DNA from: a virus
Lineage: Duplodnaviria; Caudoviricetes
Virus record (IMG/VR): IMGVR_UViG_3300042922_001473
Reading direction: 5' to 3' (one strand)
DNA: 64,000 bases
Shown here: piece by piece, positions 3,832-63,759 of the stretch
How the letters are laid out: the number at the start of each line of letters is the position of its first letter
How positions within the stretch are numbered: the stretch's first letter is position 1
Position numbers and translations under genes: made by a program
Notes under the pieces: model-generated
Databases searched by the model: none
Seen by the model: the letters and a program-made list of their open reading frames with translations, nothing else
What the model was told of the DNA's origin: nothing

Positions 3832-4185
3832 TAAAATTATGCTTAAAAACAACATTAATATTATATGATGTTGTTTTTTTATGTGCCGAATTTATATGAT
3901 AAATAATTATTATTAAAAGATGTGGATTTTCTTTTCTTCTTTAGATAAAGTATTCAAAATTAATGAAGAAAAATTAGTATATATCTAAGATAATTAGAAT
4001 TTAAAGAGAGGGATTTCCCCTTTCTTTTTATTTTAGTCAATAATTAGTTAGACGTTGACTATAAACATTGACAAGCTGATTTTAATTTGCTACAATATAA
4101 GAGTAAGAAAGTAAAAAATTACAACTTCAGAACAGTTTTTACTATATTTACTATAATTAAACTAAGAAAATAAATTGACTACAAA

Positions 4186-5469
4186 ATGAGGGTTAAAATG
4201 AAACTATTAAATAATTTCTTTAAAGAAAATAAATCTGATATTGCAATAGAAAAGGTTCAAAAATTAAGTAATAAATTAATACATGGATTAAGTACAGAAA
4301 ATGACATTGCAGAATGGGAAGCAAATCTTGAATTAATTGAGATGTTTAAAGAAAAATTCAATAAACTATTTTTGATGTATCTATTAAAACATTATCCAAA
4401 CGATAAAAGGTTAAATGAAAAATATCATGACGGTGACAGTATTAATGATGCTAAGGATGCAATGTACAGAGAGGTTCTTTTGCAAATAGTAGGAGATGCT
4501 TTATATATGTTAAAGTACAAAAGGAAGGATTTTTTATTTATAGGCGAGGGGAGATGCAAATATTTAATTGATAAAATAGAAGAATATGTTTACTTTGAAA
4601 AGAAAAATAAAGAGATACTTTTGATAAAAAAGAATGATATATCAAAAAGTTTATTAGAACAGGAATTAGAATATATTCTGAATGCCTTGAAAGATTCATA
4701 TGCCTTAATACCATGCAAAACATTAGAACAAAAAGAATGGTATGTTAGAGCAAATCATATAGATTCGTTCAAATATTTGGAACATGACGTAGAAAGCATT
4801 TTTAGTAAAAGATACAAATTAGGGTTAAAACATGGCTTTTTATTAGGTGATATTGGTAGTGGTAAAACGAGAGCTGTTCAAAAAGAGATTGAACTTATTC
4901 TTAAAAATACAAATGATGATATTATTGTAATTGATAATGATGGAATGTATGAGGAGTTTTGTCATAAAAATAACGGAGAATATATAAATGCGATTAAAGA
5001 CTATATTTTTTTCGACAATAAAGCGACTGTTATTAATAACCGACTTATAATATTGGATATTCATAGCCTTAACAACGCAATAAAATTTGAATATGCATCA
5101 AAGGCTTTGAAATATGCTTATAAAAGGATAAATGAACAATCAGAATATTCAAAAATCACATGGCTTTACATAGAAGAAGCAAATGACCTGATATTTGATG
5201 ATTACTTTCTTACGTTTATGAGTCGTTGTATAAGAAAAGGAGTAATAACCATTGTAACGAACAGAGTAACTGACATTATAGAAAACCCTAATATATGTAA
5301 ACATTTTTCGAAAAGTTCGTATATTCGCTTATTTAGACAATCACCAAATTATAGAAAAAGCCTTGCAAAGTTTCTTTCTATTGATTCAGATAAGCTGGAA
5401 TTTTATAACATTGAAACAAGTTGGGCTATTATAGGAAGTAAACTCATAAAAATTAAAGATAAACTTTAG
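4186..5469 (+). CDS. P-loop NTPase with a reduced VirB4/HerA-like C-terminal domain
   Basis: Walker A GDIGSGKT, IVIDNDGMY, Walker B-like LYIEEAN, RKG. Confidence 0.6.
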   Translation: MRVKMKLLNNFFKENKSDIAIEKVQKLSNKLIHGLSTENDIAEWEANLELIEMFKEKFNKLFLMYLLKHYPNDKRLNEKYHDGDSINDAKDAMYREVLLQIVGDALYMLKYKRKDFLFIGEGRCKYLIDKIEEYVYFEKKNKEILLIKKNDISKSLLEQELEYILNALKDSYALIPCKTLEQKEWYVRANHIDSFKYLEHDVESIFSKRYKLGLKHGFLLGDIGSGKTRAVQKEIELILKNTNDDIIVIDNDGMYEEFCHKNNGEYINAIKDYIFFDNKATVINNRLIILDIHSLNNAIKFEYASKALKYAYKRINEQSEYSKITWLYIEEANDLIFDDYFLTFMSRCIRKGVITIVTNRVTDIIENPNICKHFSKSSYIRLFRQSPNYRKSLAKFLSIDSDKLEFYNIETSWAIIGSKLIKIKDKL

Positions 5470-5558
5470 TGGATATATATTAATCTCTCAAAATATGAGT
5501 TTTTAAATTCATATTTTTTTTGATATTTATATTGACTATAAACAACATTTAGAATAAT

Positions 5559-6392
5559 TTGACTACATCAAGAGAAGGAGTAAATGCATTGGATATATAT
5601 GAAAATAAAATAGATGAAAGTAAGTTTCGGTCAACTAACTACATATGGAATGAATTAAAATTAAATAGTCCTTGGGCAGTAGGATATGTAACGACATTGA
5701 TAGAATCAAAGGAATTTAAATGCAGGGAAGATTGGAAAGATTTTTACTATAAATCAGGTAAAGATAGATTAGATGAAATAATTAAGCTAAACCCGAAAGA
5801 AGCTAATATTTTGCGTAATTTTAGTATTAAAGATAATACATTGCCTTATGAATTAAAGAATTTAAACTATTCTTATGGAAGAACAGAAAATGATTTAATT
5901 AAATTAGCTAAATGTATGTATAAAAAGATACTTGAAGAAGGAAACCCTAACAAGATTGACTTAGGAGAGTGCGTTTATATGGTTAAATATAGAGTTTTGG
6001 GTGAGACGTGGAACGGAGTAAGGGTAAGAGAAATAAATACGGTAAAAGAGCTAAATAAGGCATTCCCAGACGTATCTTTTGTTAAAACAGCAGGGGATAT
6101 AGATTATAAGTATGGTGTAGACTATGAACTTTATCATGAGGATAAAAGACTATGTGCTATACAAATAAAACCTTCAAGCTACAGAAATGGAAAGTCCATT
6201 GAAATACAAAAAGCTAAGAAGGCAAACGAGTTTAAAAACAAACTATATGAGGATGATTTTTCCGCAAAGGTTTTATATGTATATTCAAGTAGTAATGGGA
6301 TTATAGAAAATAAAGAAGTTATATCTCAAATTAGGAGTTTTAAAAAACATATTTTTTTTGATAATCAAATTGACTATAAACAATGCGTATAA
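5559..6392 (+). CDS. PD-(D/E)xK endonuclease, MjaI-like
   Basis: EDWKDFYY helix and DYKYGVDY...AIQIKPSSY catalytic segment. Confidence 0.55.
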   Translation: MTTSREGVNALDIYENKIDESKFRSTNYIWNELKLNSPWAVGYVTTLIESKEFKCREDWKDFYYKSGKDRLDEIIKLNPKEANILRNFSIKDNTLPYELKNLNYSYGRTENDLIKLAKCMYKKILEEGNPNKIDLGECVYMVKYRVLGETWNGVRVREINTVKELNKAFPDVSFVKTAGDIDYKYGVDYELYHEDKRLCAIQIKPSSYRNGKSIEIQKAKKANEFKNKLYEDDFSAKVLYVYSSSNGIIENKEVISQIRSFKKHIFFDNQIDYKQCV

Positions 6393-6419
6393 AATATTGA
6401 CTAACTATATAAAGAGGAT

Positions 6420-6690
6420 GCTTTTATTGAATACTTACACAACGAAAAACACTTGAAGTAGCTAAAATAACTTCAAAGTAATAAAGGAATTTTTAAAAAT
6501 AAAACCCGAAATAATTGAAGTTATAAATGTAGAAAATGATTTAGATTATAGAAAGAAAGATATAGATTTACTGAAAAGAAATTACCTTCTGCAGTTGAGA
6601 ATGGGTGATATTATTTTACAGGTAGTCTTGTGGCAAAAAGGATTTTAAATCATGAAATAAAAGGTGCGAAAAACAAAATATTAAATTAAT
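6420..6690 (+). pseudogene. fragment of a possible PD-(D/E)xK nuclease
   Basis: Interrupted frame containing VINVENDLDYRKKDIDLL. Confidence 0.35.
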
Positions 6691-6713
6691 AATTTTTAAA
6701 TTGGAGAGATTAA

Positions 6714-62343: not shown

Positions 62344-62363
62344 AAAGATGTTCTCCTTTTAAA

Positions 62364-62621
62364 TTAATAACTTATTGCGTCAACAGTATTAATTATATCT
62401 TCGTAATTCTCTGGTTGAGTAACTATAACAGTTCCTTTTTCACCATTCTGATTTATAACATTTACTACATCTTCACTATCTACTGTAGTTTTTGGAGTAT
62501 TTTGTGAATTTGGTAGTTCACTTAAATTAGTTTTATTAAAACTAAACATAATAATTAAAAAAGAAATTATTAATATGATAACTGCACCCGTTTTTACAAT
62601 ATTTATTTTTGATTTATTCAT
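62364..62621 (-). CDS. membrane-anchored small protein
   Basis: One TM, GGGGGAG RBS. Confidence 0.65.
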   Translation of the reverse strand: MNKSKINIVKTGAVIILIISFLIIMFSFNKTNLSELPNSQNTPKTTVDSEDVVNVINQNGEKGTVIVTQPENYEDIINTVDAISY

Positions 62622-62638
62622 TATAAAAATACTCCCCC

Positions 62639-63727
62639 TTATCTTTTATCTTCTAATATTATATAATCTAATTCTTTTTCATAAATTTTCGCTGTATTTG
62701 AAATTCTTGGGAAACAAATGTCAGTACATATATTGTTTTCATCATTAGTTATTAATACGAATATTCTATTGCCCCCGTCTTCATGATTAAGTTCCATGAC
62801 TGCACACCCAGTTGTTCCACTTCCAGCATAATAATCTAATATCTTTGAATTTTTGTCTGTAAACATTGAGATTATCTTCTTAACTGTATTGATATTTTTG
62901 ACTGTATCAAACCCGAACTTCTTTTTCCCTTGATTATCATTTATATAATATTCCATCATATCTGTATCCATTAAAGTTTCATCTGCAGGTTCAACCCAAT
63001 ATTGTACCGAGTTTTTATGCCTTCTTACAAATTCAAGCTCGAATCCTGTTTCTTTTTCATAACTATCTCTATATTTTTCCCAATATTCTTTCAAAGTCAT
63101 ATTCTTCATATATAATTCTTCATACTTTTTATAATTTACTAAAGCTCTTAACCCTTTTTCCTTTGACCATTTCCACTGTCCTTTGTCAATCATTACACCG
63201 TCTATTTCATATCTCATAGTAGGTCTATCCGCATTAGATTTAAACGAAGTCCAGTATCCACCTTTTCTTTTATCAGAAGTATCTTTATATGCATTTTTGT
63301 AATAAAATTTATTACTCTTTTTATAAACCACTAAAAACTCAAACGCTCTATTTAAGCTACTTACCTTTTTAAATTGATTATTAAGGTTTTTAGTACCTCT
63401 TTTAAGAATAAATGTATTAACATAATTTTCTACACCAAACACCTTGTCCATTATATTTTTGAGTGTAGCATATTCTTTATCATCTATATGAATAGCGATT
63501 GCTCCATCATCATCAAGCATTTCCTTTAATAATTCTAATCTTTCCTCCATGTTTCTTGCCCATTCGTCTTTCAATAAATTATCATTATATATGAAGTTTT
63601 TATTTTGGGTTCTGTATGGAGGGTCTATAATACAGAAATCGAATTTCTTTATTCCTTGTATCAGCTTTAAACCTAATAAATTCTCCCCGTTGATAAGAAC
63701 ATTTGTGTTGTCATTTAATAATTTAAT
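62639..63727 (-). CDS. N4/N6 DNA methyltransferase (beta class, Mod-like) with probable ATT start
   Basis: In-frame IIDPPY lies upstream of the annotated TTG; LDYYAGSGTTG motif I; AAAGGAG RBS 9 nt before ATT at 63727. Confidence 0.85.
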   Translation of the reverse strand: MKLLNDNTNVLINGENLLGLKLIQGIKKFDFCIIDPPYRTQNKNFIYNDNLLKDEWARNMEERLELLKEMLDDDGAIAIHIDDKEYATLKNIMDKVFGVENYVNTFILKRGTKNLNNQFKKVSSLNRAFEFLVVYKKSNKFYYKNAYKDTSDKRKGGYWTSFKSNADRPTMRYEIDGVMIDKGQWKWSKEKGLRALVNYKKYEELYMKNMTLKEYWEKYRDSYEKETGFELEFVRRHKNSVQYWVEPADETLMDTDMMEYYINDNQGKKKFGFDTVKNINTVKKIISMFTDKNSKILDYYAGSGTTGCAVMELNHEDGGNRIFVLITNDENNICTDICFPRISNTAKIYEKELDYIILEDKR

Positions 63728-63745
63728 ATTGTTCAGCTCCTTTCG

Positions 63746-63759
63746 TTGACTATTGTCTA
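63746..63759. promoter_or_regulatory. palindrome variant TTGACTATTGTCTA between the -10 and RBS of the methyltransferase operon
   Basis: Matches the motif family; abuts the RBS. Confidence 0.65.

Follow-up and report, generated by a model that had tools for sequence, protein, structure and literature searches.

A palindrome built on promoter -35 boxes recurs across a 64-kb viral stretch and a related 739-kb Bacillus replicon, and is probably the operator of an element-encoded repressor

The stretch of DNA considered here, 64 kb from the Caudoviricetes record IMGVR_UViG_3300042922_001473 (the window, in what follows; 26% GC, standard bacterial code), carries a palindromic motif, TTGACWATWGTCAA, at promoters dispersed over its length, among them that of an ftsH gene, those of two paralogous membrane genes, and a site ahead of an MjaI-like nuclease gene. 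A first reading of this DNA (the original prediction) had taken the palindrome for the binding site of one element-encoded dimeric repressor, and all the site coordinates listed on that occasion were confirmed. Exact copies stand at 13873, 22743, 36965, and 52297, as against none in 100 dinucleotide-preserving shuffles, and copies with one mismatch at 42117, 50173, and 63746; while those with two mismatches comprise 5532, 6370, 44091, and 61785, together with matches at 14125 and 35970 that lack a promoter context and are probably due to chance. At up to two mismatches the window thus holds 13 copies, compared with 2.68 +/- 1.48 expected, a number attained by no shuffle. A symmetric weight matrix of 20 columns, derived from a related replicon designated C1 (contig 1 of Bacillus sp. 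M6-12, NZ_PGVF01000001.1, 739,256 bp, corresponding to our loci L069-L105) and applied with a cut-off of 12 bits, returned 11 sites in the window and one in the reversed window, the site at 4055 scoring 12.5 despite three mismatches. The density is about one site per 5 kb of window, and the sites, with the elements adjoining them, are the following:

4055-4096, plus strand: degenerate site TTGACTATAAACAT, abutting a TTGACA-N17-TACAAT promoter at 4068-4096
5532-5565, plus strand: bipartite site TTGACTATAAACAA-N13-TTGACTA, 5' of the MjaI-like gene
6370-6403, plus strand: another bipartite site, running across the 3' end of the MjaI-like gene
13857-13886, minus strand: exact palindrome as -35 box, N18, TATAAT; promoter of ftsH (13825-12041)
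22743-22782, plus strand: exact palindrome as -35 box, N17, TATAAT, then TGACTATAG; promoter of a six-gene run
36965-36993, plus strand: exact palindrome as -35 box, N17, TATAAT; promoter of a membrane gene (37033-37518)
42117-42145, plus strand: one-mismatch palindrome as -35 box, N17, TACAAT; promoter of a paralogous membrane gene (42182-42787)
44091-44104, no strand assigned: two-mismatch match without promoter context, matrix score 11.4; doubtful
50158-50186, minus strand: one-mismatch palindrome as -35 box, N17, TATAAT; ahead of a small membrane ORF (open reading frame)
52282-52310, minus strand: exact palindrome as -35 box, N17, TATAAT; promoter of the operon 52240-50398
61764-61798, minus strand: two-mismatch palindrome as -35 box, N17, TACAAT, then TGACTG; promoter of a membrane gene
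63746-63774, plus strand: one-mismatch palindrome TTGACTATTGTCTA, N17, TATAAA; divergent from a DNA methyltransferase gene

Aligned in the sense of the promoter, the window sites conform to TTGACT-ATWGTCWA-N9-TAYAAT. The left arm had been described as the -35 box of N17-spaced promoters with TATAAT or TACAAT (N18 at ftsH), an arrangement that we find in seven or eight sites, whose promoters are the best sigma-70-type matches of the region: N17 leads to TATAAT or TACAAT at 22743(+), 36965(+), 42117(+), 50186(-), 52310(-), and 61798(-), and to TATAAA at 63746(+), with N18 in the ftsH promoter at 13886(-). The traits are those of sigma-A promoters—a TTGACA-like -35 box, a spacer of 17 +/- 1, a TATAAT-like -10 box, and a position 5' of a gene that has a ribosome-binding site. 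Between 36 and 53 kb the top three sigma-70-like matches (11 of 12 positions) coincide with three motif sites; and since intrinsic terminators lie directly 5' of two motif promoters in that segment (at 36897-36924 ahead of the promoter at 36965, and at 41966-42001 ahead of that at 42117), the genes at the motif sites are arranged as terminator-promoter-gene cassettes.

The conservation, for its part, extends past what a promoter needs. The full consensus, both in the promoter-sense alignment and in the matrix, is the 20-bp palindrome tCATTGACTATAGTCAATGa, and among the promoters of the form TTGACW-N17-TAYAAT the right arm is present, at up to two mismatches, in six of the eight in the window and in 18 of the 35 in C1. 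Promoters of that form are 10 to 25 times commoner per kb in the window and C1 than in 400 kb of the Bacillus host chromosome, and the consensus host-type promoters in that chromosomal sample lack the right arm; the concern, raised at the outset, that host sigma-A promoters might carry the motif just as often is thereby answered for the sample. A second TGACT half-site near +1 had likewise been noticed, and is seen at four sites: at 22743 and 61798 as an extra (T)GACTA located 3' of the -10 box, and at 5532 and 6370 as the second part of a bipartite arrangement, TTGACTA-N20-TTGACTA, which was found twice against 0.01 expected.

Regarding the genes at these sites, the bipartite site at 5532 precedes the MjaI-like gene (ATG at about 5584, end at 6392; Pfam RE_MjaI, E 1.7e-7), and the one at 6370, within 300 nt downstream of which we found no substantial ORF, shares with it about 40 bp of flank. 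The gene next after ftsH on the same strand is PARP-like (11868-10567). The promoter at 22743 leads into a six-gene run (22817-25714) whose products are secreted or lipoprotein-like; the two paralogous membrane genes with promoters at 36965 and 42117 lie on either side of a GHKL gene of 1121 codons; and the site at 50186 stands ahead of a small membrane-protein ORF of some 39-53 residues (50166-50005). The operon 52240-50398 encodes four small proteins of 193, 94, 87, and 109 residues, the second of which is conserved in C1 and in the metagenomic locus L033, and the promoter at 61798 serves the membrane gene 61744-60914 together with 60889-60329. The targets as first proposed can be upheld for ftsH, the lipoprotein-like run, the membrane paralogues, and the MjaI-like gene; not so for a VirB4-like ATPase, the 427-residue P-loop gene downstream of the site at 4055 (4186-5469, with an inverted half-site TAGTCAA at 4034-4040) having as its sole hit a sub-threshold match to TrwB (E 0.005), nor for a VirB11 fragment, none being seen. 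As to the methyltransferase operon, the promoter at 63746 is directed away from the N6/N4 DNA methyltransferase gene (63574-62639) and has no ORF downstream on the plus strand in the window; a non-coding RNA may be its product, or else the divergent gene may be what the site acts upon. A palindrome-bearing promoter is conserved between this position (63746-63774) and C1 (474195-474223), with no ORF downstream in either element. As a separate observation, the product of 10567-11868 (minus strand, directly 3' of the FtsH gene) combines WGR, PARP regulatory, and PARP catalytic domains; both FtsH and this WGR/PARP-like protein have counterparts of 59% identity in C1, encoded there on the same strand several kb apart.

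The replicon C1 was found by an exact-pattern scan of one genome per species, in which two matches fell on the contig. Its GC content is 33%, compared with 39% in two chromosomal contigs of the same assembly, and about 19 of its proteins are in common with the window at 28-70% identity, with partial synteny over MjaI-like, RNase H, PARP-like, and FtsH genes. C1 encodes three tRNAs, a phage-type DNA polymerase, helicases, a ribonucleotide reductase gene, an M23-peptidase protein, replication genes assigned through PHROG, and two ParA-like proteins; the gene for ribosomal protein S2 (rpsB) was not found on it, a Pfam search gave no T4-type terminase (Terminase_6N), HK97 capsid, or tail sheath, and its ends do not overlap. 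If C1 is a phage, it is among the largest known; otherwise it is a megaplasmid with phage-like replication genes.

In C1 the motif is far more abundant than in the window. At up to one mismatch we counted 76 copies, compared with 11 in the remaining 4.56 Mb of genome and four in the backwards control; that is, 10.3 versus 0.24 sites per 100 kb. The comparison of a whole replicon with the host chromosome that the original prediction had called for, made here in the relative C1, hence yields an enrichment of about 40-fold in the element. Exact copies number 15 in C1 and one in the rest of the genome, and matrix sites of at least 12 bits 140 in C1, none in reversed C1, and one in 400 kb of host chromosome. 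The sole exact palindrome on the Bacillus chromosome (L063, at about 54989 of contig 24 of G001) lies between tRNA genes in a -35-like position, and the three tRNA genes of C1 likewise stand behind a palindrome-bearing promoter, at 3668. As to placement, 74 of the 76 C1 sites (97%) are intergenic, 12 being expected; 145 of the 673 upstream gaps contain a site; and, besides the ribosome-binding site, the only 8-mers enriched upstream of C1 genes are words of the motif. Beyond C1, metagenomic contigs sharing proteins with it (L023, L026, L033, L036, and L038) carry two to four sites each in 8-15 kb. Our exact-pattern scans of genomes, viruses, and metagenomes otherwise returned mostly singletons compatible with chance, and we used only loci with at least two sites or with protein homology to C1.

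The registers in which the palindrome occurs bear directly on what reads it. One possibility is that the motif is an extended -35 element recognized by RNA polymerase together with an element-encoded sigma factor, a sigma-appropriation factor, or an activator, and marks a temporal class of promoters in the manner of MotA boxes or the conserved early promoters of T4. That proposal gains from the 61 of some 140 C1 sites with a good -10 box at N17 or N18 (the peak being at N17) and from the eight of 11 window sites in one exact register to the -10 box; from the enrichment of TTGACTAT without the right arm in intergenic DNA, with 33 half-site-only copies; and from the spacing of one site per 5 kb, comparable to the density of T4 early promoters. 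Against this, a two-fold symmetric site of 20 bp is unlike the targets of sigma region 4 or of MotA-type proteins, and the -35 and -10 boxes already match the host sigma-A consensus, so that a new specificity would be superfluous. Furthermore, the palindrome is found in C1 in positions other than that of the -35 box: within the 17-bp spacer between a separate -35 box and TATAAT (564706 and 540477), at +1, beginning 3-5 nt past the -10 box (582789, 215775, and 579641), and abutting the ribosome-binding site (254503, 559414, and 413704). In addition, the half-site is repeated just past the -10 box, within 18 nt, in 21 of 97 C1 promoters, as against none of 97 control windows. The positions in which the palindrome cannot itself be a -35 box argue for a separate DNA-binding protein, and we regard the promoter-class alternative as unlikely. 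A resemblance of GACTATAG to T7-type promoters was also considered and dropped, since the motif is a symmetric palindrome and goes with a fixed sigma-A -10 box.

A second alternative is that the reader is a host regulator common to Firmicutes, CtsR being the closest candidate, which would tie the regulon to a host signal. Read on the opposite strand, the CtsR heptad (A/G)GTCAAA becomes TTTGAC(T/C); the palindrome's rightmost 9 nt, TATAGTCAA, equal the spacer plus second heptad of the operator ahead of the ctsR gene of the Bacillus host; ftsH is a proteostasis gene; and CtsR operators overlap the -35, -10, and +1 elements of sigma-A promoters (PMC12634643), an overlap that likewise speaks for CtsR. 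Those operators are, however, direct repeats, (A/G)GTCAAA-NAN-(A/G)GTCAAA (PMC12634643), whereas the present motif is an inverted repeat with T, not A, as its seventh base. The direct repeat occurs once in the window against 1.47 expected, which is not beyond chance, the operator of the host itself differs from the 14-mer at four or more positions by eye, and 400 kb of host chromosome contain only one to three matrix sites. The likeness of the half-sites arises, we consider, because both motifs mimic the -35 hexamer. In the Bacillus genome ctsR is chromosomal only, none being on C1, though the element would still meet host CtsR in the cell. In agreement with the original prediction, in which no host CtsR site was recognised, direct repeats are at chance level, the host operator is different, and the motif fits the architecture of no known host operator; a host regulator strikes us as very unlikely.

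The distribution of the sites with respect to genes is pertinent to a third alternative, namely that they serve DNA transactions, either in addition or instead, as centromere-like or silencing sites for a spreading protein of the ParB/KorB type. KorB of plasmid RK2 combines the roles of partition protein and global repressor, binding dispersed palindromes; and in C1 the two ParA-like genes adjoin an XRE-type gene at 668096-668836, with weak palindromes upstream of the latter and between it and the first ParA-like gene. The sites are nevertheless tied to -10 boxes and to start codons, from which they lie at a median of 81 nt in C1, their orientation follows the direction of the gene, and no ParB homologue was seen, in an analysis that included no search aimed at one. 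We consider this explanation highly improbable.

A comparison of orthologous loci in the window and C1 addresses a fourth alternative, that the sites are relics of a single promoter cassette spread by duplication or on mobile cassettes, without any shared regulator. The flank shared by 5532 and 6370 and the terminator-promoter-gene arrangement are what such a history would leave behind; yet at most sites the flanks beyond the 20-bp core and the -10 box are unrelated, the core is kept in several registers, and it persists in elements that differ in GC content (26% against 33%) and between which protein identity has fallen to 30-70%. That history therefore seems to us hardly credible. The sites themselves are in part conserved with their genes: the ftsH orthologues (59% identity) have one site in the window and two palindromes upstream in C1; the MjaI-like orthologue of C1 is preceded at 236227 by the identical bipartite layout, and its other flank, at 237090, retains site-N13-TTGACCA ahead of a gene of 178 codons, so that both flanks of the MjaI-like gene share the layout site-N13-TTGACYA in the window and in C1; and the methyltransferase orthologue (70% identity) is accompanied at 474195 by the identical 14-mer plus TATAAA. 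Because other orthologues have no site in common, membership of the regulon would appear to turn over between elements.

Taking these results together, we judge it probable that the motif serves as operator for a dimeric protein that binds DNA sequence-specifically; this protein would most likely be a repressor of the helix-turn-helix type, with its gene on the element itself. The 20-bp symmetry, the several registers, and the enrichment of the right arm agree with the earlier claim that conservation beyond the demands of a promoter would point to a protein-binding site; the same symmetry and registers, the latter all inside the RNA polymerase footprint, a half-site over the transcription start, and near-consensus promoters that would need no activator argue for a repressor; and the maintenance of the motif across diverged replicons, along with its rarity on the Bacillus chromosome, makes an element-encoded factor the economical reading. 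The proposal of one such repressor for dispersed genes is in this measure supported, while that a protein binds, that it represses, that it is a single one, and that the element encodes it we infer from DNA sequence. Several points weigh on the other side. For repression rather than activation the argument is one of position and promoter strength. Almost half of the C1 sites are in one fixed register, as would also be the case for a promoter-recognition element. The arms in C1 are not equally conserved, the -35 arm reading TTGAC in 47 of 65 sites in the promoter sense and the other arm TTGAC in 25 and TAGAC in 18 of 65; and with the -35 arm the better conserved, part of the conservation would be plain promoter selection, the left arm being doubly constrained. 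The reach over the whole element is, for the source genome, extrapolated from a 64-kb window and the relative C1. Finally, among some 70 window ORFs compared with Pfam, no convincing DNA-binding domain was found that was also conserved in C1.

Were the motif such an operator, its working might be envisaged as follows. The half-site of tCATTGACTATAGTCAATGa contains the sigma-A -35 hexamer TTGACT, so that each operator would itself supply the -35 box; a TATAAT-like hexamer 17 bp off would set the direction of the promoter; and the resulting promoter, being near-consensus, should be intrinsically strong, and would be covered from -38 to -19 by the bound protein, with a second half-site, (T)GACTA, directly past the -10 box at many sites. 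About one transcription unit in five would belong to the regulon, including replication genes, the tRNA cluster, ftsH, and many accessory or defence-type cassettes, and these units would be silenced and released jointly. The regulated genes might be either an early class that is shut off after infection, or genes that stay quiet while the element is carried; and because C1 is a separate contig in the assembly of an isolate and has ParA-like genes, we lean toward carriage.

The regulator could not, as had been anticipated, be identified in the window, the Pfam comparison having given weak leads alone: an AP2-like ORF (36285-36809) and a Phd/YefM-like N-terminal domain (34324-34785), the latter conserved in C1. 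An ORF of 80 residues (59111-59353, minus strand) has sub-threshold matches to SpoIIID, HTH_23, and sigma region 4, a lone TTGACAAT half-site upstream, and no homologue in C1. Our search with the exact motif sequence itself also led to unrelated prophage-like switch regions of Tepidanaerobacter, Desulfitispora, and metagenome contigs, in which an autoregulated XRE-type gene has the identical 14-mer next to it, at its promoter, an arrangement that speaks for the operator reading; loci L010, L029, and L043 have two copies each of TTGACTATTGTCAA, L017 and L028 one in the stretch examined, and in these loci one copy provides the repressor gene with its -35 box. The distant relatives L154 and L155 have TTGAYT...ARTCAA palindromes, L155 with the same CA...TG flanks. 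The XRE family concerned, of about 226 residues and with a poor match to Pfam HTH_3, occupies divergent switch regions (L010, 3429-4440; L017, L028, L029, L043, L154, and L155) in which two or three TTGAC/T...G/ATCAA palindromes lie over the promoter and the 5' leader.

No homologue of this switch-region family was found in the window. Its recognition helix, ISAAHISR, occurs once in the six-frame translation of C1, within an XRE protein of 113 residues (691957-692298; HTH_3, E 5e-14; 39% identity to L154, E 3e-10). The gene for this XRE protein closes a run that opens with a cheY-like gene; the promoter of the latter bears a palindrome with two mismatches and, 5' of it, a further half-site. 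We put this protein forward as the best candidate for the regulator, as a lead and not a finding. A second candidate is a C1 HTH-like protein of 98 residues, encoded at 413189-413485 with three sites upstream, without any Pfam hit and, in the protein atlas, with sub-threshold HTH look-alikes only. At 413189-414414 of C1 (L089, 13189-14414) three palindromes lie within 180 bp, between this 98-residue HTH-like gene and a divergent gene of 224 codons, in a layout that resembles a genetic switch.

A more far-reaching form of the operator reading would make the motif the core of a self-propagating regulatory grammar special to a clade of Firmicutes elements of 0.5-0.74 Mb, with a factor from a new family or a hijacked host stress repressor such as CtsR: any 14 bp inserted beside AT-rich DNA would at once yield a strong promoter under the control of the master switch. 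We think this distinctly unlikely. If true, it would account for the control of more than 100 cargo and replication operons by one factor, and would represent, to our knowledge, the largest single-operator regulon on a mobile element; with CtsR as the factor, the entire regulon would be coupled to proteotoxic stress of the host.

Other genes of the window may be recorded here: a CBASS-like pair (16452-18984, plus strand), consisting of a SAVED-domain effector gene followed by a CD-NTase gene (SMODS/AGS-C); a thioredoxin gene (15701-16015); a TnpB/IS605 OrfB-type gene (29828-31081, plus strand); two neighbouring dUTPase paralogues (48126-49203, plus strand); and a peptide deformylase gene overlapping an RtcB-like fragment (25874-27284, minus strand).

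The regulation of huge phage- or plasmid-like elements above 500 kb is, as far as we know, essentially unstudied, and a literature search with three exact forms of the 14-mer (both orientations present in the window, plus the perfectly palindromic form of C1) retrieved no paper with any of them. The motif offers a map of one putatively co-regulated gene class—some 11 promoters in the window and 140 in its relative—comprising replication genes, a tRNA cluster, ftsH, and runs with nuclease, methyltransferase, GHKL, and PARP-like genes. Going beyond about ten sites in one window, the regulon would seem to be clade-wide and to have a cultivable representative; and since the 739-kb relative belongs to the assembly of Bacillus sp. 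M6-12, a named isolate, both the regulon and its proposed repressor are open to bench work. A near-consensus promoter with a built-in operator could possibly also be a useful switchable part for Firmicutes.

Viewed by analogy, the system appears to be of a known kind, the master regulon with dispersed operators of large mobile replicons, as in phage P1 (the repressor protein C1), SPbeta (MrpR), and RK2 (KorA/KorB); the present motif stands out by its scale and by an operator half-site that is itself the -35 hexamer. The P1 repressor has at least about 17 operators scattered over an extrachromosomal phage genome, roughly one per 5 kb, which overlap promoters of replication and accessory genes; those operators are asymmetric 17-mers read by a monomer, whereas here the site has two-fold symmetry and is often followed, past the -10 box, by another half-site. 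In RK2 (IncP), the analogy already drawn in the original prediction, palindromic operators recur over the promoters of a single replicon and are jointly repressed by the element-encoded dimers KorA and KorB, at 12 and seven sites compared with more than 100 here; the operator sequences differ by inspection, and KorB is a ParB that can act at a distance, while here no KorA or KorB turned up, none having been sought. The XRE switches of Tepidanaerobacter and Desulfitispora use the same 14-mer, but in local switches of two or three operators instead of a genome-wide regulon; and CtsR resembles the present system in its half-site, AGTCAA(A), and in an operator lying over sigma-A promoter elements, but reads a direct repeat and is host-encoded. 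The closest analogue in logic is SPbeta, a large Firmicutes phage with a dispersed promoter element: this short element, SPBRE, predicted in silico decades earlier in about ten dispersed promoter regions, was found by ChAP-seq (chromatin affinity purification and sequencing) to be bound by the master repressor MrpR (YopR), which silences the lytic genes (PMC10516654). The fold of MrpR is that of a tyrosine recombinase, the SPbeta genome shows no excess of our palindrome (six copies at up to two mismatches versus six in the control), the sequence of the element being different, and about ten sites in 134 kb compare with some 140 in the 739 kb of C1; and, as distinct from SPBRE, the half-site of the operator proposed here is itself the -35 hexamer.

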